From Catajapyx aquilonaris (Eukaryota), in contig JYFJ02003242.1 of NCBI GenBank assembly GCA_000934665.2, forward strand, positions 1 to 44,846: a stretch of 44,846 nucleotides of DNA. The letters run 5' to 3'. Below the pieces are notes generated by a model. The model was not told where the DNA came from and made no database searches. It saw only the letters and a list, made by a program, of their open reading frames with translations. Made by a program: the position numbers and the translations under genes. Shown in pieces: positions 8,542-42,500 of the stretch. Numbering within the stretch: the first letter of the stretch is position 1; the number at the start of each line of letters is the position of its first letter.

Positions 8542-9957
8542 GCCACATACATTCCGAAGTAACACCACCTGAGTTAATTTTAACATACTCTGCAAGTATA
8601 GTGTGCGTTTTGTAATTTCACCATAATCCACGAGACCTTTATTTCGTGATCCCTATCTGACCATCGCTAACGGGCACCGTGGCTGACAACGCATATCCCT
8701 CCGGGAAAGTGCAGCTCAGTAGTTTCAGGCTTCCAATACCAGATTCCATGACGATGATGTTATGTTCAGGAAGTCTATACAGTGCGGGTATAAACCGTTT
8801 CAACAATATCAAGCAGCGGAGAGCAGCGGTTTCATCTGATAACTGCCTGTCAAGTGACAAAGAGATGAGAAATCATGGGCCGAGACCAGCACATTTTTGA
8901 AGAAACATGTCGAAACCAACACTTAGACAGAAAAAAAAACTAAAACAGTGAATACTGTCGGCGGCGCACTATCAGGTATAACAAGGAAGGAACCATGTGG
9001 GTTGGAAATCGCTGGTAAAAACATATCGTACATCACTGTCAACCTAAGCTCACATACAAGGTATTTAAAAAATCTTCAACATAGTCAGCCCATCCTTGTT
9101 TTCCTCCTACTACACGTCTACACCTTGCAGGAGCTGGGAATGGAGTGCAAGGTGGTAATCTGCAATAAAGACGCTCGAGAAATCGCGACGACAAGAGTTT
9201 TGGTGACATCAACAAGAGAATAATAAAACATATCCTGGTAGTGTCGCAACCCCCCCCTNCCCCCCCGCCACTTATGGCAGACTTTTGTCATCTACTCACA
9301 AGGAACATATACCTCGGGTGATAATGACGGATCCTGATGAACTGAACATGCTAACCCAGGACAGTATATGATAACCAAAAATGAAATATCTCGGGCTGAA
9401 ACCCATATTTGCAAAAGTTACGACGTGTTAAAGAGACAAAAATGGTACATTTCCATACACAATGGGATTAAGTTAGCGACCACATAATTATAATGGCATT
9501 GAAGTGTGTAATCAGTTTCATTGTACCAAATACACATTATTTAACTTTCATACCATTTAGGCCTATTTACAGATATGCAATTCACTTTTTAATGCATGTA
9601 CGAGAATTGGATATAGAATCGTATTTGATACAGAAACAAATATTGCAATGTGCACAACAAAATATATAAGCTCTCCTCACATGTAGCACACTTGTCACTC
9701 GCCAAGTTGTCAATGCAGAACTCTATTGGTGTGGTGAATGGTGCATTTTGTATGGCTGTTAAAATTAATAACCATCTAGAAAAGTGCTTATACTAACTGC
9801 ACACAGTAGAATATCTGCACGACCAACTGTGAGTGTCATAAAGATGTCAATCACGATTTCAGCTTCAAGAGATATGATATTATCATATATGGGGTTATGA
9901 TGAACTCCGCGATAACTACTTATAGAAACTAAGGGTGGAATTCAGAAATATTTTCTA

Positions 9958-21339: not shown

Positions 21340-24300
21340 TTACTGAGGATTATTCATAACATGGCACCGAAACTCCAGAAATGATTCCATGTCCTTATGA
21401 GTGAGAACACGAGGCATGTTGAACAATGGTCCATTTTCAGCAGGAATACTAACTGCCATACCCAAGAGGACTTTTTGCACCCACCTCAGAGTGAGGACAA
21501 ATGATTCAGACCTTGTTGATGCAGAAATAAACTCCCTCTCTTCCCAAGAACCACCCTTAGGGTCCTCACCAACAGCAAATGCTACTGTTACATAACTCAA
21601 TCCATCACCTGTTCTCACAGGCACAGTATGGAAGAGAAAGCCAGGCGGCAACTCGGAATCTGGGAAATTCCTATCAATGTGGCAATGGCTCAGTATAGTC
21701 TGGCAAGGAATCACTAAATGAGGGCATTCAATCAAACTCATCTCCACCACTGCCCCTGAACAGATTACACAGTTTGCAGGTAAAATGGAGGAAAGGATCA
21801 AGCCTTTGGTTTTGGAAGGAGCAGCCCCGAGACTCCACAAGAGGGGGCTATCCCATTTCATCAGCTCCATGTATTCCTGGGATGTCCCCAGATGAAAAAA
21901 TGCTGAGTGCCACAGGACCAAAACTCTCAGCGGTGACTTGGACATAAGGTTGACAATTAAGTCTTTCAAGTGGCTGCTGGCTGACACATTCTGTTGGCAC
22001 ATATACATGGCACAAGTATATTAATCAAAGGAAAATGTTTAGAATGAGATCCTTAGTTTGACATTGCAATTGCATGATTAACTATTAAAAAAAAGAATGT
22101 TAACTTCATAACAATGTCTGCGCAATGCGCATGTTTTAAAATAATTGTAGACTAGCAAAAACAGGCATAAAAACTGATACGATATTTCCTCCTGTCAAGA
22201 GCTTGACATTATTCCTTGTTATCTATCACTACTACTGCTGGTGAGAGCAAGTGTGTACTACAATCAGCCCCGAGTCACTCCTTATACCTGTACATTGCTA
22301 CCCCCATGAGCTTAGCTATTCTCCCCCACCGAGGGGGGTTGGCCACGTTCGGAGCTAGAGTCAAGTGCCAGTGCAGGTGACGCCTTACCTAGCGGGGCAA
22401 TTCTGAACCATTATGGTCGACTCCGATTGGCTGGAGTCTGAAAGGCCTCATATGGCGAGCCATGTTATGGCCCAAGGAGGCCAGCCAATTGGAGTCGACC
22501 CTAATGGTTCAGAATTGCCCCGCTAGGTAAGGTGCAACCTGTAGTGGCACTTGACTCTAGCGCCAAACATGGCCAACCCCCCTCGGTGGGGGAGATCAGG
22601 TAAGCGAAAAGAGGGCGAGTGACAGGGGGCTGACTACAATACTCCAAAATTATGCTAGGCTATAAATATTCAGTAACACTTACCTTAACTGCTGCCAAAT
22701 TAGGACTCTGGCCCATAAGTTGAAGAAAGTCAGTGTAAATGCAGGTCTGTACTTGCAAAATCTCCTTCAAGTTACTAGATGCAAACTGAAGAAATTTCTT
22801 TGTAGTCTCAGGTCCAATCCAAAAGGCACTGTCACTCAAAACTCTTTCTTTTTGCCTCTCTCCTCCTCCTGACTCAATATTAAATATTGCACCTTCCCTT
22901 CTCATGAGAGCTTCTGAAGGCTTCTGCAGCACTCGAATGCAGCTGGAAGTCCAAATAACTTTTCCAGGGCTCTCCTCAGGCACTACTGGAGGTGGCACAA
23001 TGAACACACCATGTCCAGAAGCTATATCAAGAGTGGTTGGATGGGCTAGAGCAGTTATGCCTTCAAATTCAGTCTCAGCAGCCAAGCCCTCCAAGTCATA
23101 AATCTCTACATCATCAGAGGCACTGACAAAGACACCTCCACCCTGCGAAAGACAAGTTATTTGTTCACATAATCAGAGAAGTGTGTTAATTAATAGAGAG
23201 TTCAGAGTTATGCACAGTATTTGGAAATATAAACAAACCGGTTCATCATTAAGTCACAAAGAATTTAAAGTGTTAGTGCCACAATTATCTATATCTATAT
23301 TTTAGGAAGTTTGTAGGTTTGTGGATTTGCTTGTTTGTTCACTGTAGAAATCCATGGGAATGCCCCAACACCACCTAAAACTAGCATACCAGGGGTTACT
23401 TTTTACAAGGAATTTAACGCAGTATGTTTCAGCTTCCGAAAATGAGCCGAACTCCCACAACACGCTAATTCCTCTCACTACGACCCTCAAAAATAGTCCA
23501 CTTAACATTCCCCAAAGAGAGAATAATCCCTACAGTTCGTGCCTACCAGAGCACTTCGCCCTCCAGTACCTGGAAAGACCGACCCATCCGTGTAGACTGT
23601 CTGCAGGAACTTCCATCCAAATCTCTGTCAATCTGAACCATTCTCCAAGGCAAAATAGCTGGAGCACAAGGTCTTACAGATTCTCCTGAAAGAATCTGTG
23701 AACAATGCGAATTCCTAGCCTCCCAGAGAATCCAAGCAAGATGCTCAGGTGGAACCATGCCACAGAGAACGAAAAGTAATTCAGTAGGCTCTACGATGCC
23801 TGTTAAAAAATCGCTTTTGCAAGAAATATTTTGAAAAAAGGACCCATGGAGAGAACTTCTTTCTTGCATAGTGTGTTCCGAGTCGCATCCTTTTAGTTAT
23901 TGCAAATTACACCTAAAGTGGTTATTCTTTGCAGCTTATTGTGCCCTGATCGAGGTGCCCAATTGTGTAGTAGCTACTGCATTCGACCTGTCATCATCAT
24001 CATTATGTAATAACACAGCCAGACACAAATGCATGCGAGCACACGTCTTGCAGGTGCTATATTGACAGACTTTACATAAATATGTCTAGCGGTAGCCTTC
24101 AGAATAACTAAAGTTAGTATCATACGTACTGGCATGAGCTGTATGAAAGGCATGTAGAGGGCCAACTTAAGATCCAGCACATCCCAGCTACAACAGGTTC
24201 CAGAGGTGATAGATGCAAATGGCTGTGGGATAGCTGCAAACACTTTTCCTCCACAAGAATGAGCAGGCATCCTTTTTGAAAACCCTCCCGCGTGAAGGAG

Positions 24301-24671
24301 AAGAATTCGCAAGCCCTCCAGGTTATTGCCATATTCTAGTTGCAACTTCTGCAGGGCATTGAATGTGGCTCCACCTGACCCCAAGCCTGGTACAGGGTCA
24401 GCTAGCGTTTTATAGTCAACCCCTAGCGGTAGCTCCAGATTGGCCACCTTCCTTTCTAGCTGTGCCTAACAAGAGCCATATTTTTAAATGAGTTGCTTTG
24501 CATTTATTTTCATGTGATGAGGTCAATTACCTGATACCACAGTTGTTGTCTCTCATCAGCTGCTGTCAACATAACCACATTCCAAAATGGTGTCGCTCCT
24601 ACATGCTGTCCTCTCAAGGCACAGTATCGAGTCACAAGGCCTTGCAGGTAAGTTCGTACCTTGTCATTCAT
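21340..24671 (-). CDS. FPGT: Fucose-1-phosphate guanylyltransferase (GDP-L-fucose pyrophosphorylase), 528 aa; exons 24671-24531, 24465-24130, 23142-22684, 21990-21340
   Basis: Motifs FWNVVMLTAADERQ, ELPLGV..DP..GLGSGGATFNAL, ILLLHAGGFSKRMP, SASDDVEIY, TALAHPTTLDIASGHGVF, QKPS and FFHLGTSQEY are colinear with vertebrate FPGT as I recall it. All introns GT-AG, phase 0. No kinase domain, so not FCSK. Confidence 0.92.
22265..22632. mobile_element. hAT foldback MITE in FPGT intron 3
   Basis: Termini CAGCCCC/GGGGCTG with exact 8-bp TSD ACTACAAT (22257-22264, 22633-22640); long internal inverted arms (~22320-22435 vs ~22480-22595). Confidence 0.88.
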
Positions 24672-25299
24672 CTTACTGTCAGCTAACAACAGGATTTACA
24701 ATGTCATTGCATTAGTTGGAGATAGTACCACAAATGTTCAATGTGACTTTTGTATACTGTAGTATATACAGTATCAAATGTGTTACCCAATTTCATATAC
24801 CTGATCAATACCCTAACTATAGGCCTATGCCCCATGCCCCACTAATATGCCCTATGCTATTCAGTTGAAGACGGGAGCAAAGTTGCAGACCAATATGCTA
24901 TAAAGCGTGAATATTTGGAAAATGTGACAATGCAGTACACCTTGGTACACTCATGGAAGTGCATGTACCAGCATAGGCTACTACTAACGCCAGTGCTCTA
25001 GGTGTCTGTTTATTTTACCGTACCTCTGTTATTCTGATATCCCGGGGTTGAGTTTGGTCGCTGGATAACAGCATGAGTATAAGGTGTCAATTGACCAATC
25101 TACTATACATACCGTATGCACCTGAAAGAAATCCACATCTACTGGCGAGAATATCTTACTCTGTCTGGAGGAACACTTGAACAGAAAATCTCACCCATGA
25201 TAACGTGTAGGGCAGAATGATGAGCTGTCAGCTGAAAGGCCTGAGACTCTCAAGTTTCAATCTCAACATGCCAACGAGAAAAGCACGGGCCATCCACGA

Positions 25300-25855
25300 G
25301 TCCGAACCTAAAAGAAGGGCATCGCACAGACGCGCACGCATACAGCATAGGCGTACTAACAGGTGTGAATAATGTGAACAGGTGATTACGGAACAGTCTC
25401 GATAACAAGGTGGATCTCGATAACATGACGTACCGGCAACAATGTCCCATGTTAATCCCCAGGTGGCAGCAGGAACTGCGCTAGAAGTTCCCGCCATGGA
25501 ATTTTGTTGCCACGGTTTGTTACAAAACAATTTGGTTGGAAGCAGACAACCGAAATGGCGGTAAAAATGGAAGATGTTTGGCCTCACAGTTCATTTGTGT
25601 ATTCTCATGATGGGAAAAAGTTGCAATCGGCGCAGTTGACCTCTTGCTCTGGCAACGAGAGACTAGACGGGGAGGGAAGAAGGAGGCCAACATGGCTGCC
25701 TCGTAGAGTAGTTTTTAGAAGCAGAAGACGACCGACGAGGGGTGGATTGAGAGAATCTCACCTTCTTTGGTGTGGATTGCCGGGGAGTCCGTCATGGTCG
25801 GTGGTGCTGACCGGTTCCAGTGTTGGGCGGAGCTCGGTACCTCTGCGGCACAAGG
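25300..25855. promoter_or_regulatory. CpG-rich bidirectional promoter region shared by FPGT (-) and TM2D3 (+)
   Basis: Start codons are 1.18 kb apart head-to-head; local CpG enrichment; twice-repeated TCTCGATAACA (DRE-like) at ~25397-25425; YY1-like AAATGGCG and CAACATGGCTGCC. Motif function is inferred. Confidence 0.55.
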
Positions 25856-28364
25856 ATGTGGGCCTCACTACTGATCTTCCTGCTGCTATTCACTCTTGGT
25901 GGACTTGGACGAGAGCATGAAGATGGTAAAAATGATTGCGGCGGCGCCTATAGTCCCGGACATTCATTAGTTCCATGACTTGGTGGAGAATAGTCGTTGT
26001 GACAACCTGCACTGCATGTTATTATTAATTACATGAGTCACCAGGTTGCGCAATGCGAGGGGCGTTCATCGCCTTGAAGGAAAAGAGAGAAACAGTTCAA
26101 ATTGCACGCGTGTATTAGTCGTCCTCTCTACACCGTATGCAGCCTGCAGGGCCACACATATTTCTTCAGCTATGCACGACCTGTGGGACACCATTGTTGC
26201 TAAAGTCGACGTTTGAGATTGAAAATAGTATTCAACCTCTGCGATCACCCCCTTGTCGCTTTCGAAATGCTTTCCTCACAGTGGCTGCTTCAAGTGGCGT
26301 AAGAGGATCCAAGTGTCTAGGGGCGAGCCCCCGAGGTCCTGGGAATACAGTGAATGCGGCAGAATAATGTACCCCAACTGGCCAGCAAGTAGCACAGTGT
26401 CATGGGCAGAATGAGCGGGTGCGTTGTTGTGCACACTTTGCATCACCATTCCTCGTCTCTTCCGCTTGATATGGTGATGCAGCTTTTACAGGAGGTCTTG
26501 ATAATACTGCTCGGTGATGGTCTGACCTTTTCCTGCCTAATGAGTCATGATAAATCTGCAGGAATTCCCAAAAAAACACTGACTGGCCTTTTTCAGTGGT
26601 GGAGAGTTCTGAGTGTTTCTACTGCTTGCTCTGTAATTTTTTTGGTCTCTGGGTCGTAGTGGTACACCCAACATTCATCCATGATGATGAGTCAATTGAA
26701 AAAATCACCCTCATCTACGAGGAACATTGCCAACATTTTCTTAGCCGTACCGAGGTTGAATACTCTTTTCAAGCGCAAAGTGTCGACTCTGGCAATAATT
26801 GTGTCCCACAGGTTGTGCATCGCGGGGAAAAACGTGTGGCTTTGCAGGGTTCATATAGAAAGAAGGACTAATGCATGTGTGCAATTTGAACCGGTTTTCT
26901 CCTTCCCGTCAAGGCGATGATAGGAACTTGATGAATTCCCCTTGTAGATGTGTACTGGCTGTGAGTGATCCACCAGTGGAAGTTGAGAGTTTTGGTGTGC
27001 AGTTGAACTTGTTTTCAGGGCAGGGGTGTAGCTGCACTTCTGCAGCCGCCTTCCTCATGTTGCTAGAGCACATATTGCTATGAGCACCTTTTTTTCTCGT
27101 GACTTGACTGTCAGTCAAAGAATTGAATTCCCTGCACTACTAATAGGAGATTTCTAGTTATATCCTTATGCTTGCTATATTATTTTCTCGGTTGGTATGA
27201 AGGCCTGTGCATTTTATTTGTGTTTCAGTGTCAGCACAGGCTCTTCCGTCCCGAAGCAACCTGGTTCCATCACAGGAGTCGCTCAGGCGGGTCGATCAAG
27301 GAAATCCTGGAGGAGCTTCTTCATGCAAGTCAGGCATTCCATGCTCCAAGTTAGGCATCCAATGCCTCAAGTGCAACTTCAATTACAGCTGTGAATATGG
27401 CAAGAAGACACAGGTTTCTTGCCAGCCACTAAAGGATATGATAGTGTGCTCTGTGAGTTTGGAACCTAAGCCTCTTTTAGAGCAGTTATTTGAAGTTATA
27501 TGTAATGGTCATCAAAAATATTTTATCGAATGCAAGCATTCATTGAGGCCCCAAATTATGTTTCTGCTGAAATAATTGAATTTTGCCCCATTGTGTCAGG
27601 GGTCAGTGGATGGACCAATTTCTCAAAGCCTAGGCTCATCTGGATAGTTTAAAAGGATGCACTAATACCTAATATTAACAGATCAGTTTTAAATGACATC
27701 ATAATGCAGCTGTTAAATTGTAACTGGTAGTAAAAAGTTTTAAGAAACTAAAGTAGGTGGTAGTGTGAATGCAAATACAGAAGAAAATCTCTGATTAGTT
27801 CTCCATACCCATGCAGTGTATATCAGGTTATGAATTGTGTGAATACAACATGAGCGCATAATTTGAGATTTTCTCTTACTTGTATTTGTACAACTTGCCC
27901 TTAGTTACTAAACAAGTGTTAACATATCTTGTACTGACACACTTCTCACTCCATACCAGGGTAACCGGACTGTGATTCGCCAATTCACTTGCCGATACTG
28001 CTATCAGACGTGGGAATGGGAGCATGTGTGTACTGGGATGGCAGGATGCAATGCAAGGGCAGCCCCTCAGCAGACATATCGCGCAAACTGCACTGTGAAG
28101 CCCAATGTAATCTGCCTGGGGAACAGGTCCTTCCCGAAGAATCTTAGATGCAAATGGACTGCGGGAGCAAGCTGGAGCACTGCTTTGGCCCTCAGCATAA
28201 CTTTGGGTGGGTTTGGAGCAGACAGGTTCTATCTGGGACACTGGCAGGAAGGAATTGGAAAGCTGTTCAGTTTTGGTGGGTTGGGTGTTTGGACACTGGT
28301 TGACGTGGTTCTTGTTGCCATCCGTTATTTGGGGCCTGCTGATGGGTCTCTTTATGCATCATAG
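25856..28364 (+). CDS. TM2D3: TM2 domain-containing protein 3 (almondex), 232 aa; exons 25856-25925, 27229-27452, 27960-28364
   Basis: Signal peptide MWASLLIFLLLFTLGG, Cys-rich ectodomain (CRYCYQT...NCTV...ICLGNRSF...C.WT.G..W.TAL.LSITLGGFGADRFYLG.WQEGIGKLFSFGGLGVWTLVDV), phase-consistent GT-AG introns. Confidence 0.95.
26056..26944 (-). mobile_element. Decayed mariner element with long (~190-bp) inverted ends, in TM2D3 intron 1
   Basis: Ends CGAGGGGCGTTCA / TGAATTCCCCTTG|TA; inverted arms ~26066-26245 vs ~26750-26920. Interrupted minus-strand translation gives MDECWVYHYDPETK, GQTITEQYY, HNNAPAH and LPHSLYSQDL, matching the mariner DETW / HDNAP.H / YSPDLAP motifs. Confidence 0.88.
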
Positions 28365-28426
28365 TGGAAATATGCTGTACAGTTTCAACTTTTGTAATTA
28401 AATGGGAGTTTTTACTATGAAGCCAG

Positions 28427-30702
28427 TTACATATCTTTTGACCTTCTCAATGCCAGTTTCAGATGAGAGTCTGTTGTATTATGATCTACCAACACTGGTC
28501 TTAAACCAACAAAAGGAAGCAGCCTCATTTTCATCGACAACAGTCCACTTGGCACCATATCATCCAGATTCTCACATGAAGTGCATACACCTACTTCTGA
28601 ATCCAGAACTTCGACACTAATGGGATGATCCAGCCTGAAAAACAAAATTAAAATTGTGTACCCTGTCAGATTGGTATAAGACGGATATATTGCAGTGGTC
28701 GAAATATTCGGATGCAAAGTGCAATTTGCACTCCAAAAGTGGCATGTGCACTCCAAACTGAGCCTTGGAGTGCACTCCAGTTGGTCCTGCTTTTTAACAT
28801 AGCTTAACACAGTAATTAAATATTAAGCACTCCAAGTAAGCAATTTGCACTCCAGATGAAAGTCTGGAGTGCAAACTTCGCACCTGGACAAAAAAATTAA
28901 AATTCGACCCCTGATACCGTATTGGCATTGCTGCAGGATAGAATACTCTTTAAAAAAAAAAAAAATCCGATCTAGATTAAGGTCAGGTGCAGCTACATTG
29001 TCATCACTAGTGTCCACTAGGATAATTCGAGGGTGATAGGCTTGGTGATAGGTCAGAAGGGCGTATGAGCCTGTAAGGGAATTTTACATGAGAGGGAAAA
29101 AAGTTTCATTATTTCAATATTCATTATAATTTTGTAACTTTTTTGTGCAGCCCACATCTTATCTGCATTGAAACATGTGTTTGCTGCACAAAAAAGTTGC
29201 AAAATTATAATGAATATTGAAATAATGAAACTTTTTTCCCTCTCATGTAAAATTCCCTTACAGGCTCATACGCCCTTCTGACCTATCACCCTCTATAACT
29301 GTTGGTATGAGAACTTGCAGTCAGGTCTAATATATGGAGAACATTGCATGTGAACATAATTTTAAAAACGAACAGTAAGAAAATGTCCTATACAGCAATA
29401 CAGGACTCAAGTGTAAAGATTAACATTGAGTAAATTATTATTGATGTGTGTCATGCTGTGAAAGGCAGTAATATCTCAATGTGCCATCATGAGATATTTT
29501 CCCTTTGATCTAGCTTACCCTTTATAAATGGAAAGCCCTGCAATCCTGAGATGTGGAATCGGACATGATACTGCTGGAAAATAGCCCATCTTCCCCAAAA
29601 GTTTGGCCACTTTTTCCAGCTGTGGCCTGTGCTGCATGTCTCGATAAGCCACAGAAATTGGATCCCATTGGCTGCAATGCCTCAGAGCCAACTCCTGCAG
29701 ATGCTCTGGACATGTTTCTTGCAGGCGTAAGCACGACAACAATAGGTGCAATCGCCTTAGCCCTCTCGCAGTCTGCCTTGAAATTAACGTTGACATATGT
29801 TCGGCATGGATCAATTTTACAGCATGGAGTGTTGCATTGGTAGAAAATCCAGCCACAAACAAGGCCAGCAGCAGGTGCACAATGTCAGCTCCATCTTGTG
29901 TAATGCTGGAAGACTCCAAACTGGCCTCGATGAGTCCAATTAGAAATTGCGGCGGTGGAATTGCCAATGAGTTCACAGCCCACAGCAACCGTGATAAGTC
30001 TTTCATCCTGGGTTCAAATCCACCTCCTTCAACATTTATTGTTGCAACCCACTTTAATAATTGGGGTGGTCTAAACAAAGTGCTGGCAAAGGCAGCAAGG
30101 ATGTGGCTCAACAGTGCCATCGGGATACCATCAACTGACAGTGACTTGGCTAGGGATGCCAGTGAATCCCAGTCAAGTTGACGGCTGTATCTCAAAGCTT
30201 TCAGTATGGACACAACCGATTCCCAATCTAAATTGTCCTTTGACTGAAGCCATTTATTACCTGTCAAAGCAATAGGTAGTGGAATGGGCACTCTTGATCT
30301 GGTGGCACTGGCGCAGGCACTGATCAATATTAACTCATCATTGCATTCAACATATAAACGTGACAATGTTTTCTTTACAACCCTCTGCGCCATTGGCATT
30401 TTTTTCCCTGTAGCAGCAAGTGAAGCCAGAAGTGGGAGAACATCAAGATCCACTTCTTGAGCATCCAACAATTGATCTGCACTTTGGAGGGCAGAATGGA
30501 ATATTGAAGAGCGAGTGGCTTCTCCGTGATTTGTATTGCTCTGGAACCAAGAGTCCAGGGCTTGTACAAGAGGGCCTAGTGATGTAGCTTTCTCAACATG
30601 GTTTGAATTAGAGCATCCTGATGGTTGGCAGCTCCAGCGCCCCAACTTTGGGTGCTGACGAAGTCGAGAGATGAGTCGAGCTGTGAAACCAGCACCTTGC
30701 AT
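28427..30702 (-). CDS. FASTK-family (FAST kinase domain/RAP domain) mitochondrial RNA-binding protein, 463 aa; exons 30702-29519, 28634-28427
   Basis: Arg-rich MTS-like N-terminus MQGAGFTARLISRLRQHPKLGRW; Leu-rich helical repeats (RMKDLSRLLWAV). Donor GG|GTAAGC at 29519 joins acceptor TTTTCAG|G at 28634 in frame (1392 nt), adding a RAP-like end PISVEVLD...GLLSMKMRLL...GLRPVLV. Exact paralogue not assignable. Confidence 0.75.
28693..28913. mobile_element. hAT-like MITE with GCACTCCA subterminal repeats (FASTK-like intron)
   Basis: Termini CAGTGGTCGAA / TTCGACCCCTG; many GCACTCCA/TGGAGTGC copies; TSD not conserved. Confidence 0.55.
29028..29294. mobile_element. Mariner-type foldback MITE (near-perfect ~105-bp arms) in the FASTK-like intron
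   Basis: CGAGGGTGATAGG...CCTATCACCCTC; arms ~29044-29150 and ~29185-29290 are almost exact reverse complements. Confidence 0.8.
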
Positions 30703-32165
30703 GGCTGGGTAACTCTGTGCTGCATCAACCTGGGAACAATGAAAAAAGAGTATTTCAGAGGGCGAGTCATCACAGATACTGTACATCAGGCACATACCCT
30801 GAGACCTAAGCAGTGGTCTTGATGGTCAAGGCCAGTGTGTTTTTGGTTGACTTTGGTAATTATTAATTTTGAGAATTGCAATTTTGGTGTAATATTCATC
30901 CAGTTATTGGAAGTCTTACTGAGACACATGTAAAATGTCAGTGCCAATCTTCTGGGGCATATAATGTAATATTACACATTCTGTCACTAGTGCAGTTCAA
31001 AGTGTAAGTTGTTAAGGTCCTACATGGGGGGGGCAATGCACCATTCAATAATGCAATTCTTTATTCAACATTTACAGAGGAAGGACAACATTATAAGTAT
31101 GGTAGTAACAAGTATTAAAGTGGCCAAAGTAGGCTGCAGTAAAAAAAGTTCGAGAAACACTTCCATGTGGGCTGTACAAGAGTGCCACCAAAGTACCAGC
31201 CGAGCCGGTACCAGCTATAGTGAGTTAGACAAGACAAAAAATGTATACCAGAGTATCTCTCGTGTATGAGATCGCTCTGGGTAGCACCAAGAGCTGGTAG
31301 CACTCATCTAATTCATATGGACTGGACCATAATTGCAGGCAAAATGAAGACATTCCATCATGAGGCAGTCCAATGAGTTCACTGGAAAACTAGTAATACC
31401 TGATGCAAATGTACAGTACAATAAAGCATGCGACAGAAAGTGACATCTGCTACTGTATGTTCACATCACCAAAATTCCAGTGACATAATGAAGCACAAAA
31501 CATATTAATCATTTTGGTTAGAATAAGACTCCTGCCATTTTAGTATTAAATATCTACATCGTCCCTGGCCAACTGCAGCTCCAGGCTGGGGTGCCCTAGG
31601 TGTAGGCATCGAGACCTTACTAGTAGATCACCGAAGGACACTTAGCAGATGACCGAAAATTGAAATGTAGCACTTCGGGCTTTAAAATCAGGGCTAATCT
31701 GCATGGTTTTAAATTTTTAAAACTTCCTCTGTTAATTAGTTTTTGTGTAGCTTTAGCATATCATGTTGTGTGTCATTAACTCCAATCAATCCCACATTCA
31801 ACAAGCCCAATGACAGCTCAACCTACTTACCTGCCAAGCTGATATGTCCAAGGTAGCAGTGAGTTGCCTTCAGCCTCCTCTATACCCATCCATCTCCAGT
31901 TACTAATCAACTAATGACTAACAACATATGCAAAATACTGGAACACAACATTTGAAAGGTCACTGAAGTAGTGACGTGTACTCTGTCTCGAATGATCTCA
32001 AAGGAACTGAGTTGTTTTTCCTTGCTGAGGATTGTCATTATTTGAAAAAAGTGCTTTTACTGTAGCATCAGTACCATGTATATGATATGCATTACTCTTA
32101 GATTGGAAACTAATAGTAAAAAATGATTCCCACAATAATCCACAAACATACAGCTGAAGCGTATA

Positions 32166-32589
32166 CAGGGTGTATCTGAACTCAGTGCCCCGACGTATAT
32201 GACTGCCTTCCTAGCCACCAGAGGATCGATTTAAGTATAGGAATCATTATGTTTGGCCGCCGCATTACGGAGATAATTGGCCGCAAACATGTAGTACAAA
32301 ATATCCTGGCGGTTAGGCCACCCATCGAACCCTCCCCCAGTCAGAAGGCTCTGGAAGGTCTGGGGGCGGGACTTCGTTGGTTTGTTGCCCACAGGTGGTA
32401 AGGCCTCTTTGGCTAGTTACACCAGAAAATTCTCTTTAAAAGTCAGAAGGAGCGATTAGGCAAAAATCGCTAAAGAGTGTATCTCAGTAATGAGGCTGCC
32501 TAGACATATGCCTCCTATACTTAAATCGATCCTCTGGTGGCTAGGAAGGCAGTCATATACGTCGGGGCACTGAGTTCAGATACACCCTG
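32166..32589. mobile_element. Tc1/mariner MITE with ~76-bp perfect TIRs
   Basis: TA|CAGGGTGTATCTGAACTCAGTGCCCCGACG...TTAAGTATAGG, and its exact reverse complement ending CACCCTG|TA. Confidence 0.92.
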
Positions 32590-32935
32590 TATATGTAGGG
32601 GAAAAAGTCATAATGCTAGTACCCAACTCTGGAAATGGGACTGCAAAAGGAAAAATAAAATATCTTTCCACAAAGAGTATCTCATAGCGAGTAGCAATAA
32701 GTGCCACATTCTTCAACATGCTCTCATTAGTTCACTAGTTCTCATACATCACATAGATCACAATAACACTAAAAGCTGTTAAGCTGTGTATCACAGTGTA
32801 GAGTGTAGACAGTAATGGCATCCTTATTGTACAGTACATACAATATAATTATCATTAAATGTCACAGTGGTTATGTACAATGGGATTGACTCCTTGATTC
32901 CCAAATGACCTAAACTATAAACAACAGTAGCAATG

Positions 32936-33020
32936 CAGTAAAACCTCCACATAATGCTCTTCAAGGGCCTGCCCAAAAGTAGCTGTATAAGCGGGAGAGT
33001 GTTATATGGAGGTTTTACTG
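32936..33020. mobile_element. Mini pogo/Tigger-like MITE
   Basis: CAGTAAAACCTCCA ... TGGAGGTTTTACTG 14-bp TIR; internal CTTCAAGGG is shared with the 10654-10810 element; flanks are TG rather than TA. Confidence 0.55.
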
Positions 33021-33395
33021 TGTAAGTATTTTTTCAGAGCTACTTATTTCTCGCTAGAAAGCTGACTTGTATGCAATGCCTTGAACAGTTATGGTATATT
33101 CTTATATAATACAATTAGACAGTTTACAGCACAGATTATTGAAATATTATTTGCTGTAAATTTTTCAGCACGACATTTGCACTGTACAGTATATAATTAT
33201 GTAGCATGTAAAATGAGATACATGACACAATGGTTGCTATAAGTGTCAGTTAATCCGTTAATATTGAGAGGAATGTGTCATACAGTTTTCAACATCTCTC
33301 TAATTACAATATATGCTGGCATGTCACATGTTGCCCTTGGCTTAATTCACAAGTGATTAAATAGGAAAGGATAGGATTGGTGAGAGGTTAGCTGC

Positions 33396-36300
33396 TCAGT
33401 TATTGCTGTCCCGCCTCGCACTATGTCTGCCCATTGGCAAGTTGGCCATGACAGAGGAATGTGTTGCCAGCTCCACCTCCCTCAGGAAAGACCTGCTGTT
33501 GTGTAAGTTGGACCCTCCCAAAACAATTCGAGCAGAGGTGAAGTTTGTCCGGACAAGCTTCTTGAGAGCCAGTGATTCTTCAAGAGTGACTCCTCCCACC
33601 ACAAATACAACTACATCTCGAAGACCTACGTCATCCACAGTGCTTCCACTTGATGGAGGTGGGGGAGAGGATGCATAAGGGAAAGAAGATTCCTTCAGGC
33701 GCCCCTTAAGTAGATCTTCTACTGTCTGTTTCAGAGGGGGCGTGTGCTGGGCAAATACATTCTCCACACCCTTCAGGCCTTCAAAGAATCGACGGGTGAT
33801 CTTCACTGCTTCCTGAGTGTTAAACTGGTCTTTGTCTGCTCGTGTACCTCGGTCTGAAACACTCCCACTGTACTCCAGTACAGAATTCACCATCTAGGCA
33901 GAAGAATAACAACAATACATGTATTTATGTATGGAAAATTTCATAAGAGAAATATTAAGAATAAAGATTTGTTAAAGTACGTACACACAGTCGCTGCAGG
34001 TGCAGGAAAAAATGCAGAAAACACAATGCCATTAACATCATTGAAATACCCTTTCAAATTAAATTCATGGAACAACTAAAATTGCACCAGATGTACTCTG
34101 CGCTTCAGCAGGCATTGTTTGCACCCACATTATGTTTGCATCTAACCCTGGCAACTCCGTGTACTGCCCCAGCATACACAGTGTGCCTTTCGTTACATGC
34201 AATGTGCTTGAAGTCAGACTTTACTCACTGCAGTCATACAATCCCAGCTCCATTTTGCAGGGATAATGAATTTTCTTTCACAATTATTCACAAGCAACAC
34301 CAGCACACTAAATAAACAAGTAGATACTGTGCCACACTATTCTTGCCCTCCATTGATTCCTTCAAATCATAAGTTTAGCCACAAGCACTAAATCAGTTTC
34401 AGACATGCCCCTGGTCACATCTTATCCACCTGTCATGACATTGTATGTTTCCCCCTGCATCACTCAAAAAGGAACCCTTCCCTTTTACCTACGATACATA
34501 CCACAGTAACTGTCAACAACTTATTCATAGTGACCTAAAGTACTGCAAGCAGCCAGTTTACTGATGACTTTGTAATGTATCAAAACACAATGCATGTATT
34601 ATGGTCTTCATGCACTTTGGTATATTTAAGCCAATTGACTTGTAATTTTGAAGTGTTTGCACTGGAAGGCAGTAATACTTGGACAGTTTTGTGATCCTGT
34701 CCCTATCACTATGGCTACTAAAGGTTTTCCCACCAAAGGCATCCCCCAAAGTATTTGCATTTGCTGCTAATAACTCTCTGGGATCCTTGTATCCTTTCAC
34801 AGGTTGGTCCTGATCATTTGCCAATTCCAATTAACTTTCCCAGAACCTCTAAACCCATAGTATTCCCTGGAAATCATCTCAATGAAATGCTCAGAATCTA
34901 ATAGTATGGCATCAGTTCCCGGTACAGATGCTGGGCTCCCAATATCCTCTCTGAACGATAATTGTGAGTGCTGGAGCCTCACACCCACACAATGCTTTCT
35001 TATATGTTACTGGAATTGTTTCAGGTGCACAAACTAAATTAACTGTACCACCATCAATACACAAAATTCACGAAAATATCCATACCTTGATAGACTGATC
35101 TGGCACCTCCCTGCGTTTCAACATATCCCTGAGTCCTGCAATGTCATTATCAGGCCTTCCTCTGTACCTCAGGGCATAAAGCATCACCAGCCTCAGCACA
35201 TGTGGGTGCCCAATCTGTTGTGGAGGCATAGCCAGCAACCTCTTCACCCTGCCCAATGCTTTCCCATGATCTTGCCTACAAGCCAGCTCCTGCTCCAGCT
35301 CTCCAACCTCAAGCAGCCTGTCTTGTTGGACCAAACGTGACAGCTCACCCATAAGTGCTACGTGCTTTCCTGCAGCTCCACTCAGCTTACGAAACTCTGG
35401 GTAGCTCTCCACAAATGATTTCATGTCAGCAATGGACTCCAATTTGTGGTGGTGACTACGAGCTCTTGATTGATACTCCTCCATTAGTGCCTTCAAGGTC
35501 TGACCCATCTCACCAAAGTTCTGTTCCATGGTGGAAGCATAGAATTCATCCTGCTCCTGGCTCAGGACCATTTCTTGCGCATCGCCATTTTCACCAAGTC
35601 GCACCCTGTCATTCTGTATACCTAAAAGCTCATGAACCATGGCTTGATATGTCCACTGGAGAAGCAGTGGGGTTACACAGTCACCTCTGCGGTCTATTAT
35701 GAGCAAGACAGGTGGGACAGGATCAGTATTTCGGCAATTTTCAAACAGAGTTGCCTCCTTCTGCATCCACTGGTATATAGACTCTGCAAGTCGCCTGGCC
35801 ATTGGTGAGTCACCCTGGTAGCGTACATAGGGGCGCTTCTTAAGTGAGAGAAGAACAGCCAGGACACCTTGTTGACACCTCTGCAATGCCAACTGTTCCC
35901 ATCCAGACCCTTTGCTGCATCCAACTAGTCCCAATGAAAAAAGATGGGGTCCCACGGCAAGGTAGTCAGCATAAAACTCTTGCATCTCACGCACCACATC
36001 CTGTTCATCTGCCTCTGCAAGCATCTTTACTTCCGTCATTGATATTGCATTACTCCAATCTAAAATTACGGTAAATCAAATTGATAAATCAGTTCAATCA
36101 ATAAATGCCAACTCAAATTTAGACAATAGCATGTTCAAAAGTAGTTGGCGGACTGCAGTATAACAGGTGGTCCACCTGTTGATTACTTACATATGTAGTA
36201 TGACCCGAACCTAGGTCGCCTGAGCTCGGTAGTAAGAAGCAGCACATTGTCACGTGTGGGCCTGAGGAAGGCGAGGCACTTGAGGTGCGGCATGGAGTCC

Positions 36301-36562
36301 CCCTGCACCTGCCCTCCAACCCCCCCGCCATCAATGCGCTCCAGGAGGTAGACCTCTTTCTGCAAGATCTCTGACTTGGCATACACCATGCTCACCACGC
36401 TGGTCTGCAAGGAGGCCCACCAGTCAGTCCACTCTGCAACCGCAACGCAGTGTGTGCACGCATACATACAGTTTCCTGGTCCATGAGCAGAATCTTCATC
36501 CCGGGCCCACTCTCCTCTATCATCTTGGTGATGTACGACTTGACAGCCCACACCACGTTCAT
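33396..36562 (-). CDS. VPS45: Vacuolar protein sorting-associated protein 45 (Sec1/Munc18 family), 592 aa; exons 36562-36470, 36404-36191, 36059-35086, 33893-33396
   Basis: [98 protein letters not shown] and [14 protein letters not shown] are VPS45 hallmarks; phases consistent. Confidence 0.97.
34560..34990 (-). mobile_element. Possible highly decayed hAT-related transposase fragment in VPS45 intron 3
   Basis: Frameshifted ORF pieces end in IHALCFDT, reminiscent of the AxCFDTTASNTG motif of hATm-like transposases. Weak. Confidence 0.25.
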
Positions 36563-36960
36563 CCCTGCTGGCTGTGTCTTGACTAGGGCGGTAGGCACTG
36601 TACGACGAGGGTGTCGGCGGGGCAGGACAGCTAGCAGCGGGTGGCAAAGGTCAGGACTAGGGTGGGACAAGGAGGAGAAGGCTCAGCCTTTTTTATGGAG
36701 AGACTTACGTGAAGCACACGTGCACACCGGGCTGGCTGTACACACTCCAGTCCAGTCAGTCAGTCCCTGAGTCTGTCCGACGCTCGTCGCCTGCGTCCCT
36801 CACGGTGACCAGCTGCTCAGTCGTGGACGTCGTCGTCGTCGTCGTCGTCGTCGGCACACAAGACAGGCAGGCAAGGACGGGTTGGCAGGCCTAGAGAAGA
36901 GGCATGTTCAGGGCAGCCAACGTGTGAGTAGGAGTCACGTGGTCTATAACAGGCGGCACA
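36560..36960 (-). promoter_or_regulatory. CpG-rich promoter/5'UTR of VPS45, with a probable non-coding first exon ending at 36709
   Basis: High CpG density, (GTC)n run at ~36829-36852, donor CAC|GTAAGT at 36709/36708 and acceptor TTCTCCTCCTTGTCCCACCCTAG| at 36656. Confidence 0.55.
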
Positions 36961-39544
36961 TTTGAAACGTCGGGTAGTCCGAGTCGGTTTTGCATATTAT
37001 AACTGCTTGCTACCTTCTGAATTGCACCGTTGATATAAGTACATTTCAGGGCCGAAAAATCATTGCCATTATCCTAAAAAGTTAATTTTCTAACAGGCAA
37101 TTCAGACCAATCAATAGCCCTTCTATTTTTTGGGACATCGGTTTTGGACATTTTGTGACAATAATGCATCTATGCCTTCTCTGCAAATGGATCCATACAA
37201 AATTATATCCTTCAGACTGTCCCGGGAAATGTTCTTGAACCACATAGAAACATTGTTTTCAATGCTGGAAGTGTATGCGGCTGTCCTACCAACGTACATT
37301 GCAAAAAGCAGGTTAGGGCCATGTGGAAGACACAACCTATCGCAAAAAAACACACACACATTTCTTTTTACTATACAGGACAGCTGTACTGACAAGGGAG
37401 AATGCAATGTTGCGAAATAATATCAGAAATATTTTGCTTATTGAAACAGTACGGAAGGAATCGTAATCAATTAAGTTCACAATAAAATATAATAAATAGA
37501 TCATGTTGCTGTATGTCAATAACTTTTTTTTTGTATATAGAAATTCCGTGGCAAGCATGGGCTGGTCTGGGTGCCAGAAAGGAAGACATGAGGGAGAAGG
37601 TGGCCCATTCTTGCTGCCTGCAAGTTGTTTGCATTATCAGGAGGCCTTCATGCACAAAGGAACCAGGTGCCATTTCTTTACTTGTGCCTGGTTCCTTTGT
37701 GCATAAAGGCCTTTTCATGTGTACCGGTACAATGGTTTTTTTTTGTTTTGTTCATGTTGATATCATCACCCATCATTATATTATATTATAATATTATTAT
37801 CCTATGCATGTTCCTGTCCAGACACCAAAGGATTCACATGTATCTGTCATGGCTAGGAGTTGCACTCACCTGGTTATTGCAGACTACCACACTATGGGAC
37901 ATAGTCGTGATGTAATGAATGAACGGCTGGTTCTTAAAAACCATTTTCATTAAAAATACTGTATCCCTGAGCTGCCAATTGTCAATTTAAGGCTTAGTAA
38001 TATGTTATGAGCATTTAAGGCTGATCTCGAACCATTATTTTAAATATTTTTCATGGGCCACAAATCTTCTCTTCACATCACAGCTTGTCCCAATTTGGAT
38101 GCCAGCCATAACAGAACAGCAAAAATGCACTGCTTCCTTGTTACCTCATAATATGACCTTACGTTAAATCTGGAACAATGGTCAGATACTTGCAGAACAA
38201 AGGGAGGGGGAAGGGTAAACAAATGTAGTAGAAAATACCAGAATTGGCCGGGCTGAGTTGTTGACATGGCTTCGCCACAATGCAGTTTATGAACAACAGC
38301 AGGAAAATCACATCATCACTAACGTAAGTTGTTGTCTAATCATTGTCCCATGGTCAATTACTACTCTACACTTCTAAAATGAGCAGCCAGCACTGAGCCA
38401 CTGGTTTTTTCTCATCCACGAGTTCTTCTTGCCCATGTTTGACTGTGGCTCATGAAAGTCTTAGACAGCACTGTGGAAACTTGACATAGTCTCAAGATTG
38501 ATTGACAGAATAGGAAGGAGCTATCTGGCTATCAGAAGATACAAAGGTGGGACAGATGGCGAGGGAGGCAGGCGAGACTGGGCCTGGGTGATCCTGCCAG
38601 TAGACGAAGTACACAAAATTTTTGCACAAAAATTCCCACAAACACCTAATAATGTATTATTTTGCTCATGTCCTTCCACATGTTCATTTCACAATGGTTC
38701 TGAAATTACTTCATTGCTCTACACAGGTTTACAGAATTAAAACACACACTAGGTCACAAGTTATGTCAGTTTCCACAACTCATTTTATTATTGATGGTCA
38801 TTTCCAAATAATATACACTTGACACAAAGTTCTCAATGTCTCAAGCAAGTCACTATAAAATAACACATTATCTTAACTTCAATTATACCTTTCAATTTCT
38901 GGTAACATCAGTTAACATGACAAGGAGGGGACCCTGCTAGTGGTTTACAGACCAGTTTGTTGAAAAGCATTACTTTAATTTCTTAATTTAGGATGTCTTA
39001 TCTTCAACAATAATAATCAAACAGTAACACTGATTGCATGGACAGTTTACTGAACATTGTGCATCACCAGCTCAGGTTGATCAAACCCGTGAAGCACTAT
39101 TCTTGGAAACTACCATTCCTCCCTCCACTTAAGGCCAGTCTGGACAATGGAAGTATCATGGTTAATGCATCGAAAATGTGATCAGTGAACAAGTTACCCC
39201 CTCGGTAGGTTACCTCCACTATCCAGATTACAGCCTTAAAGAATACTTCTTATAACTTATCCCCCTAAAGCCCTCCTTGAAATTAGATTTTGCATCAAGA
39301 GGAGGGGGGCTGAATGGCCGTCTGATTTAACTGCTTACTAGAATGCATGGATGCATAAATTATTTGATTCCATAATGGTGCTTATATAACTTCAACAGGG
39401 ACTCCTCACTGGCCAAATTCTTCCAAGTAACACTATGTTACCTGCTGCCTTTCTTATACAATAACAATGTTCCTCTACAATTTATCTTATGAACGTGGAA
39501 AACACAACACTGGCAACAACAATATAAAACCTTAATTAATCAGG

Positions 39545-42500
39545 TCAGCAAAAGATCTTCATCTTCTCCTTGTTCACCCACATCTGAAAAAGACATTCAG
39601 GTTGTAAACAACATCCCTACTAACTGTAAGTTCAACTAAATGACACTCAAAATTAAAAATTGGGTACTTTTCAGTTTACAGATTTCTTAGAGTGAACAGA
39701 CACGCCCCCACGGGCGAACCAATGGGGTCGCCTGAATGACCGTGCGTCACAGTAAGGTTGCCAGGTGAAATGCATAAATGTAATTGACGGTGTATTTTAA
39801 AAAGGAATTCGACCGATATCAATTATTTGGTTCTGACATAATTTATGAACACTAAAGCATTATTTAGAATAGCGTAATAGAAAAATTAAAATCAGCAAAA
39901 GTCCTTCGATATGGCCACATGGGGACTACTTTCAAGGCGAGAGACAAAAGAGCATCGGGATCCGTGTCAGCGTAAGTTCGAACTTTCGAAGCATCGTTCG
40001 AATCTCTCGTTCCACCATGTCTCGTCTGCCACCTGCGCTGCCTTCCAACCCGCCTTATGTGTCTGTCATGGTGTACCTGACATGCCGGTCCAAGTGGGAC
40101 CCAGACAAACACTTCTGACTTCGGTCACGCAGCAGCCGCATACTTTTGCAGTAGGTTGGAATAATTACGCTAATAAACATTTTATAACGTGTTTCACGCC
40201 CTTCTCGCTCTCGTTTTGTCGTCATGTCTTGCCCGCGACCTATGCTACTCCATCCCAACAATCCCATCATCGAGCAATAAATTAAAATCAATCATGTATA
40301 ACGACTTATCAGGAGAAATCCGGGCACTTCTTTCCGGCGCGCATAAGCACCATCGGAATAAGGTTTCCCGCCCTGCCGCAGGGATACATGTTGTCATGGT
40401 GCCAAAGTGGTGGGGGGGAGAAGTTGGGGAGGAGGGAGGAGAGAAGTTTGTTTGGGGGCGGGGCCATGGGCCCAGCAGTTCACTCCAAGGAATCCGTTGC
40501 CTTTATCACGCAGTATGGTTATACTTTAAACAGTTGATATTATGGAGGTCATTTTGTAAGCCTGGCTAGTATGTGCTTGCCCTAACTTCCTAAATACAAT
40601 ACTTGCCTCCATTTCATAGAGGTGAATCCAAGGCAGTTTTAGTTGTACATCTCCTTCCTGAAATAACATAGAAAATATTATAATTAGTTCTCTGTAATTA
40701 TTTTTAATTCAAAATTTAAAAAGCGAATCCTACCAGGACAAGCTGTAGTCCCATCTTCTTCTCAGCACTGGTTCGAGGTCTCTTAGGTACTTGTGGAGTG
40801 ATGGGTTGTTCATTCCCTTTCCTCTTCTTCCCTTTTGGAGCACCTGATTCTGCCTTGGCCTTAATTTCATCTGTAAGTGGAGTTCCAAACAGCTTGACCT
40901 TCAGGATGTTTCTGGCTTTCGATTTGGCTGGAGATTTAGTTGCTACACTCCTGTCAAAATAATGTAATTGCTTTAGTTTACTTCTCTTTACAATAAGAGC
41001 TCCCTCCTCATAATATAACCTGGTTAGTGGACTAGAAGTTGAAGGTGGGACTTCAGTTTCCTCCTCTGAGTCACTCAGGGTAACCTCGACAGGTTTCTTC
41101 TGTCCTGCACGTGACCTGTTCAGTAGGAGGTCATTTTAAAATTATGATCTAAGTCAGCTACAATAGTTTGCAAAATCACTTTAAGAATGGTATGAAGAGG
41201 GGAGTGGGAGAAAGGACAGTCCGCTGATAGGTTTGGTTAAGCAGATGACCACAGGGCAACTTTGCCCAACATCGAAAGGGTAACCAGGTAGAGTTTTAAG
41301 ATGTTTGCTATATCTGGGACAAAAACTGGTCAGGTTAGGGGGAATGGTTTGTTTTGAAGGAGAAAATTAATGAGCAAGGAAACATTCTCAATCTATTTCA
41401 TTTGGCAGCAGTCTTCAATTGGTATTCCACAGAGGGTTCCATGAAGGTACTTGGGGTGAAAAACTCAGCAAATTTTAGCAAGTGATATTCAACTAAACAT
41501 AAAAGAAATTAGAACCTTATTTATTTAAAAATTGCAATGGAACCCGTTCTTCGCACGGCCTGTTTCTATGGTAATCACCAACAAAATTCTGTTGCCACGG
41601 GCAAATAAAAATTCTTATTTTTTGCCTTACATACGTAGATTATCAAAATATGTTAATTATTTATTTATTAATAGCAGCAAACCTGTGTGTAGTGTCTCGT
41701 ACATATGTTGCACTTGGTGTCAGTCAACGTACACAGAAGTGATCGAAAGTGGAGGGATAATTGGACAGAGTTATGCAATAATGGCTCAACCCACAAAAAT
41801 GTCAAAATTGAGTTATGCCCAGGAACGTAAACCCAAAGGATAGTACCCGTATTCAGTTAAAATCAAGGTGGCGAAATCTCCATACTTCTGCCACAAGTGA
41901 CCGAAAAGTTAACTGATGAATGGTGTGCATGGACGGTGTTATGCAATAATTTGTCAACCCACGAAAATGTTTACCTTTCCACAGTCTGTTAAACCAGTGG
42001 TTCCCAACCAGGGGGGGCGTGAGGCCATGAGAAATACGTAAAGTAATGTAACATGTTTCCACATGGCGCTGCTGGAAATATGAAGGGACCGACGTTTCTT
42101 CTTGCTTGTATCCGATGTGCTTACAGTGTAGGAAGATTCCACTGTACTTTGGCAGCTACATTCACCTAAACTTTGTGACCTTGAACCCCCAAAAAATTTC
42201 CTCTGTTGTTGCCCCTATTTCAACAGGTTCAGTTATAAAATTTTCTTTCAAGTAACACTTGCTGAAATTTATTGGGGGAGGGGGGGGGGNGGGGCGTGAG
42301 TGTTTGGTGAAAACGAAAAGGGGGCGTCGTGGCGAAAAGGTTGGGAACCACTGTGTTAAACCAATGAACACCATGACATCACGATTTTCCCACTTCCACC
42401 TGGCTCTCTCCTCCAATCATGTCCACGACTACGACTTACTCTGCAGACATAGGGTACTACTGCACATACTCAGAAAACACGGCTGGTGTTACATCATGTC

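Follow-up and report, generated by a model that had tools for sequence, protein, structure and literature searches.

The window analysed here, positions 1 to 44,846 of contig JYFJ02003242.1 from the Catajapyx aquilonaris assembly GCA_000934665.2, carries two minus-strand genes with non-overlapping coding sequences (CDSs): VPS45 (36562..33396) and, downstream of it, a gene for a predicted helical-repeat protein (30702..28430). Here we report that a transcript from the CpG-rich block at the 5' end of VPS45 skips VPS45 to reach the coding exon of the downstream gene, and that VPS45, which encodes an endosomal SM protein (Sec1/Munc18 family) and trafficking factor, is also expressed and spliced. 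We consider it likely that the downstream gene has no adjacent promoter and is driven from the CpG-rich region upstream of VPS45, with its leader spliced over VPS45.

The RNA data are those of a single run, X1, in the form of assembled contigs (31.8 million letters, 0.31 of the sampled words, library type unrecorded) that were mapped on positions 27000-38000 of the window. Within the mapped region the contigs skip five GT..AG introns: one in a neighbouring TM2 gene, three in VPS45 and the long one running from 36709 to 30729. X1 was taken as RNA of this organism because it skips canonical introns and its 8 listed pieces contain 0 other letters. It is without cover at 31037-32137, 33973-35073 and 36909-38000, and the first of these blanks is uninformative on both the 3' end of VPS45 and a donor-like motif at 31831. 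The features that make up the two genes are as follows.

36501..37000, no strand: CpG-rich promoter region (CpG observed/expected 0.85, GC 0.59)
36709..36815, minus strand: non-coding leader exon, RNA-supported part (junction contig)
30730..36708, minus strand: first intron of the downstream gene, 5,979 bases (GT..AG, X1 joint), holding the whole VPS45 CDS, the VPS45 3' untranslated region (3'UTR) and the spacer
36470..36562, minus strand: VPS45 first coding stretch, ATG 36562 (X1 joint 36404/36470)
36191..36404, minus strand: VPS45 coding exon (X1 joints 36404 to 36470, 65 nucleotides (nt), and 36059 to 36191, 131 nt; Sec1)
35086..36059, minus strand: VPS45 large coding exon (X1 joints; Sec1 E 1.9e-73; VPS45 homologues to 59% identity)
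33396..33893, minus strand: VPS45 last coding exon, stop TGA 33398-33396 (X1 joint 33893 to 35086, 1192 nt; Sec1)
32721..33395, minus strand: RNA-covered VPS45 3'UTR (X1 contigs, records 4 and 5; without AATAAA or ATTAAA)
29519..30729, minus strand: main coding exon of the downstream gene (436-codon open frame 29515-30825; X1 contigs, records 2 and 3)
28635..29518, minus strand: predicted second intron of the downstream gene, 884 nt (GTAAGC...TTTTCAG; prediction from sequence)
28427..28634, minus strand: predicted final coding exon (68 codons and one that is shared, TAA 28429-28427, frame kept; prediction from sequence)

The long-range junction is carried by one X1 contig, which links the exon ending at 36709 directly to the exon starting at 30729 and skips 5,979 bases. 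This contig (record 3) has 313 letters at depth 6.88, with 109 letters placed on 36707-36815, 154 on 30574-30727, 0 other letters, and the remaining 50 unplaced at the masked (GAC)n repeat 36816-36861. Its joint was reported as 30727 to 36707 with a cut of +2 and CT..AC borders, which is GT..AG on the minus strand, and the breakpoints coincide exactly with a consensus donor, CAC/GTAAGT (36709, the slash marking the exon end), and a polypyrimidine-AG acceptor (30729). The two sides of the joint have just 2 letters in common, and a chimera of k-mer (de Bruijn) assembly is therefore unlikely; we take the joint as a real cis-splice. The initial annotation, made from the letters of the window, had named the donor 36709, a coding exon starting at a splice acceptor at 30729 and the junction between the two; donor and acceptor are both present in the sequence and used in this RNA contig, in which the junction itself is seen.

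Read depth around the two ends agrees with the junction contig as the sole assembled product there. It alone explains the depth of bin 36542-36908 (109 x 6.88 / 367 = 2.04) and that of bin 30670-31036 (58 x 6.88 / 367 = 1.09), so that no assembled contig enters the acceptor 30729 from upstream.

The leader exon is without an ATG and probably extends through the (GAC)n stretch, because the contig has its 50 unplaced letters at that masked repeat. Two sequence elements were noted in the leader/promoter region: the (GAC)n trinucleotide run itself (36816-36861), masked as a repeat during contig mapping, and, further upstream, a palindromic CACGTG E-box at 36936-36941. On the other side of the junction, a strong polypyrimidine tract marks the acceptor, whose AG lies at 30731-30730, and the exon runs from 30729; the main ATG follows at 30702, in good context and 27 nt past the junction. 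An out-of-frame ATG in weak context, 5 nt after the junction, opens a 49-codon upstream open reading frame that overlaps the main ATG (30702-30725) and, to judge from its position, could damp translation of the downstream gene.

VPS45 itself is well defined, and its identity as given in the initial annotation is confirmed. Each of the three frames tested on its exons has a Sec1 match (PF00995; E 1.9e-73, 1.7e-16 and 1.6e-07), and with the exons joined as the X1 junctions indicate, its four coding exons, separated by three introns, encode an open protein of 592 amino acids (aa). This protein aligns end to end with each of the four homologues tested (e.g., 1-589 against 1-562 of 564); there were 515 proteins at E<=1e-90, and among the 120 listed nearly all named ones were VPS45, with best identities of 56-59% spread across molluscs, insects, crustaceans and vertebrates. 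The full CDS, from ATG 36562 to stop 33396, falls inside the skipped 5,979 bases. Its ATG follows donor 36709 by 147 nt, without another ATG between, and thus lies within the intron of the other gene; a candidate acceptor is found at 36656, between the leader donor and the VPS45 ATG.

The downstream gene is harder to name. Its predicted spliced protein has 463 aa (CDS 30702..28430, minus strand), and no X1 joint was found for the predicted intron 29518-28635. Family, sequence and fold searches were run on the exon products separately, and any RAP domain would be split by the predicted intron. On the 436-aa frame Pfam gave no match (E<=0.01); at E<=10 the 394-aa exon product matched 0 families, including neither FAST_1 nor FAST_2, and across the 394-aa and 68-aa products the only hit was a sub-threshold DUF190 (E 0.093). 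The domain models of the FASTK family are FAST_1 (PF06743), FAST_2 (PF08368) and RAP (PF08373). The reading of the last exon as DUF190 was rejected, with an Atlas score of 0.76, below lead level. Each exon alone gave no match to a C-terminal RAP in Pfam or PDB sequence searches; by eye the C-terminus looks like the RAP pattern, a likeness that is not a test. A word-indexed homologue search returned 0 matches, and phmmer against the PDB found nothing below E 0.78. Against 1.84 billion representatives phmmer returned 3 matches (E 3.5e-07 to 2.9e-05), which were rejected as artefacts because all are internally repetitive, bacterial-type and of unrelated families (e.g., SprB, fn3 repeats).

The AlphaFold2 single-sequence model consists entirely of helices, about 22 in number, and has a predicted local distance difference test score of 48.6 (low confidence), and the fold search from that low-confidence model recovered generic alpha-solenoids only (best Z 10.8); trypanosome RESC chains appeared at Z 7.4-7.6 with root-mean-square deviations >11, inside the noise expected for helical repeats. 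The sole positive identity signal came from ESM Atlas features (a protein language model), in which the best clusters were RESC6 (0.94), FAST_1/RESC6 (0.92) and RAP (0.90), and 9 of the 10 best family-bearing matches fell in one family or clan. The first 36 residues hold five basic and no acidic ones, a composition consistent with a mitochondrial presequence. Judged from sequence, the product is possibly a fast-evolving helical-repeat protein of the FASTK/RAP kind; the name "FASTK-like" given in the initial annotation draws on protein-language-model likeness and is unconfirmed by any family model.

The distribution of CpG, measured in 500-base segments, places one candidate promoter over the two genes. 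The segment 36501-37000 (CpG observed/expected 0.85, GC 0.59), which encloses the leader exon, just upstream of the VPS45 ATG, is the sole CpG-rich block within 28.5-39.5 kb. Throughout 30501-36000 all segments have ratios of 0.10-0.47 except 32001-32500 (0.59), which coincides with an inverted repeat resembling a miniature inverted-repeat transposable element (MITE), and the next CpG-rich segments on either side are at 25001-26500 (0.71-0.80) and 39501-40500 (0.81-1.00). These values agree with the initial annotation, which had described CpG-rich 5' regions and a stretch from 30.7 to 36.1 kb that is CpG-poor apart from one MITE. The uninterrupted CpG depletion from about 27 to 36.5 kb is consistent with one transcribed block. 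Taken with the junction, the landscape suggests that both mRNAs arise from one promoter, possibly with one leader, and that the leader route may be the main expression route of the downstream gene.

The two products could be made as follows. A pre-mRNA would start with the leader (at least 36815 to 36709) and run through VPS45 and beyond its 3' end. Where donor 36709 is spliced to acceptor 30729, VPS45 would be removed inside the 5,979-base intron, leaving a monocistronic mRNA whose first good ATG is 30702; where splicing joins the proximal exons and cleavage falls within the VPS45 3'UTR, VPS45 mRNA would result. The choice may be set by cleavage and polyadenylation after VPS45 as against read-through and pairing of the still-free donor 36709 with 30729. 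Such a mechanism would be in keeping with the lack of AATAAA or ATTAAA for 2.3 kb past the VPS45 stop and with a 3'UTR that is RNA-covered to at least 32721. Three features lie in the spacer between the RNA-covered 3'UTR and the acceptor.

32162..32593, no strand: MITE-like inverted repeat (arms 32162-32275 / 32480-32593, 114 nt, 90% complementary)
31825..31831, minus strand: donor-like GGTAAGT (CAG/GTAAGT, exon end 31831; no evidence of use)
31060..31065, minus strand: first AATAAA past the VPS45 stop, about 2.3 kb after the stop, with acceptor 30729 a further 331 nt downstream

The sequence scan located the first minus-strand AATAAA where the initial annotation had put it, and found no minus-strand ATTAAA from the VPS45 stop to that AATAAA (31065-31060). 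Candidate poly(A) sites of VPS45 are this AATAAA and signal variants near 33019/33100. X1 depth reaches 114 in bin 32138-32504, and many transcriptome copies of the MITE-like repeat are therefore indicated; a variant of this repeat without 170 bases (32309 to 32480) is present at depth 208 in X1. A second MITE-like inverted repeat lies at 29044-29290, inside the predicted second intron of the downstream gene, with 113-nt arms at 97%.

Several points weigh against a shared promoter with a leader spliced over VPS45. Support for the junction is one contig of modest depth (6.88) from one small run of unrecorded library type; contigs cannot reveal transcript starts, and the leader may be an internal exon, an acceptor-like CTCTTCTCTAG (boundary after its last letter) being present upstream of it at about 36891. 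The pair is seen in one genome, and a minor or tissue-specific promoter may be active just upstream of 30729. VPS45 is a putative user of the leader: no X1 contig covers 36498-36706, record 6, the contig of VPS45, stops at 36497, and transcription of VPS45 could begin within the 147 nt that separate donor 36709 from the VPS45 ATG. Of the shared non-coding first exon that the initial annotation had listed as one option, the splice from 36709 to 30729 thus stands in an RNA contig, and the sharing by VPS45 is at the level of a suggestion. The same gap would fit two close but separate promoters, one starting the downstream gene at the leader (at or upstream of 36815) and the other starting VPS45 within the 147 nt or without the leader, so that the genes would have a CpG island but no exon in common; no contig ties the leader to the VPS45 CDS, and the nested gene of the cholinergic locus is described as also having its own promoters within the host intron (PMC3053374). 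Against two promoters stand the mere 147 nt from donor to ATG and the confinement of the CpG-rich block to a single 500-base segment, and low coverage (3.6) together with high GC explains the missing contig equally well. We regard this arrangement as unlikely, although not to be dismissed. A CpG-poor promoter near the coding exon, with the 36709 to 30729 RNA as a minor read-through by-product of a "conjoined gene", would find room in the long open frame 29515-30825, where an in-frame ATG upstream of the acceptor would permit translation of an unspliced 5' end, and read-through chimeras are common in animals, with fusion pairs noted among human genes (PMC2568002). The sole assembled 5' end in X1 is the spliced one, however, with no contig crossing the acceptor from 30730 upward, and the acceptor has its strong polypyrimidine tract and a good-context ATG 27 nt beyond it; a promoter of this kind seems to us improbable.

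Two further explanations would keep the genes together in one RNA. A dicistronic mRNA of VPS45 and the downstream gene, formed by splicing 31831 to 30729 and translated at its second open reading frame (ORF) by re-initiation or an internal ribosome entry site, can point to the donor motif present at 31831 and to arthropod precedent, with 159 pairs described in Drosophila (PMC4528330). The motif CAG/GTAAGT is indeed there, as the initial annotation had it, but GGTAAGT occurs in the window at chance frequency (6 found against 5.02 expected; 6 or more in 41 of 100 shuffles) and no use of it was seen; no X1 contig (from one small run) joins the VPS45 3'UTR to 30729, the observed transcript leaves out VPS45 entirely, and the second ORF would sit more than 2 kb behind a first ORF of 592 codons. 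We hold this outcome to be very improbable, and the splice 31831 to 30729 gains no support, its donor motif being at chance and the junction contig lacking VPS45. An acceptor shortly after an upstream poly(A) signal is the geometry of operons resolved by spliced-leader trans-splicing, and 30729 is a strong acceptor some 330 nt past the upstream gene's first AATAAA. What one contig shows joined to it in cis is nevertheless a same-strand genomic exon located 5,979 bases upstream, and of 19 loose ends the 6 that are listed include none at 30729; resolution of a polycistronic precursor by trans-splicing, also proposed in the initial annotation, is without support and can be given scarcely any credence. 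The heading under which these options had been grouped, a dicistronic or operon-like unit, overstated the case, in that the observed product is monocistronic and excludes VPS45.

Co-transcription from a region shared with VPS45, the reading we prefer, has close parallels. In Drosophila melanogaster, shared-promoter pairs are described as the commonest exon-sharing class, with 130 genes, for example Ip259/RpS27A (FlyBase; Crosby et al. 2015, PMC4528330). Those pairs, as described there, lie on the same strand with non-overlapping CDSs and have a promoter and 5' non-coding exon(s) in common. The two genes here are arranged likewise, and the transcript of the distal gene carries a non-coding exon located at the 5' end of the proximal gene; unlike in the fly pairs, the use of that leader by the upstream gene, VPS45, is conditional on the considerations above. 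More than 20 promoter-sharing pairs are described in human, including CPNE1/RBM12 and UBOX5/FASTKD5, in which two unrelated proteins draw on a single promoter with its non-coding first exon(s), and the proposed choice is between polyadenylation of the "shorter" gene and transcription running on into the "longer" (Yang et al. 2008, PMC2568002). Our locus would resemble these pairs, one of which has a FASTK-family gene, and differs in its partners; orthology with FASTKD5 is not demonstrable and the FASTK coincidence may mean nothing.

The cholinergic locus offers a nested counterpart, with the whole VAChT ORF within the same-strand ChAT gene's first intron, multiple promoters and alternative splicing, in an arrangement described as conserved in nematode, Drosophila and mammals (PMC3053374). 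VPS45 likewise has its whole ORF within the first intron of a same-strand host. Unlike the single-exon VAChT ORF, it has four coding exons and three RNA-confirmed introns, and whereas both cholinergic products belong to a single pathway, VPS45 and a helical-repeat protein have no evident functional connection.

The arrangement is thus already well documented in Drosophila and human; this pair was not found in print, in that the titles and first abstract lines returned by a literature search for VPS45 and FASTK contain neither name, the papers seeming to be gene lists. Because the kind is well documented, its general interest is modest. For annotation, a gene predictor would either miss the 5' end of the downstream gene or merge that gene with VPS45; the RNA junction fixes its first exon. 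The locus would be one more case of two unrelated proteins depending on one promoter region, where the balance of polyadenylation and long-range splicing decides the product; one of the two acts in endosomal trafficking, and the other is a helical-repeat protein that evolves fast and may be a mitochondrial RNA-binding one. One could go further and see in leader sharing and read-through splicing a systematic, genome-wide co-transcription of unrelated housekeeping genes in this lineage, a cis counterpart of spliced-leader operons in which weak poly(A) signals, such as the 2.3 kb lacking AATAAA behind VPS45, are tuned to the ratio of products and the present pair is one unit among many, but we consider so broad a scheme doubtful.

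The remaining genes of this part of the window are those that the initial annotation had named as FPGT and TM2D3. FPGT is marked by PF07959 on three frames (21340-24465, minus strand), and the TM2 gene by a PF05154 match at 27912-28364 on the plus strand, where 27960-28364 forms its last exon and the X1 joint 27452 to 27960 (GT..AG) confirms the intron 27453-27959. The two genes stand head to head around the CpG-rich 25001-26500, which is probably a bidirectional promoter. The TM2 gene and the helical-repeat gene, on opposite strands, converge nearly base to base at 28351-28429. The X1 contig of the TM2 gene ends at 28426, with a plus-strand ATTAAA at 28397, and the stop of the other gene is at 28429-28427, its nearest minus-strand poly(A)-like hexamers being AGTAAA (28416-28411) and CATAAA (28356-28351). 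Given the position of that stop relative to the end of the TM2 RNA, and the hexamer positions, the two 3'UTRs must overlap antisense.

Across the window as a whole the CpG ratio shifts sharply at 20.5 kb, from mostly 0.65-1.5 before it to 0.1-0.5 after it, with short CpG-rich islands at gene starts in the latter part; the change between 1-20500 and 20501-44846 would correspond to the pattern of mosaic gene-body methylation. The window also contains two single N bases, at 9259 and 42290.

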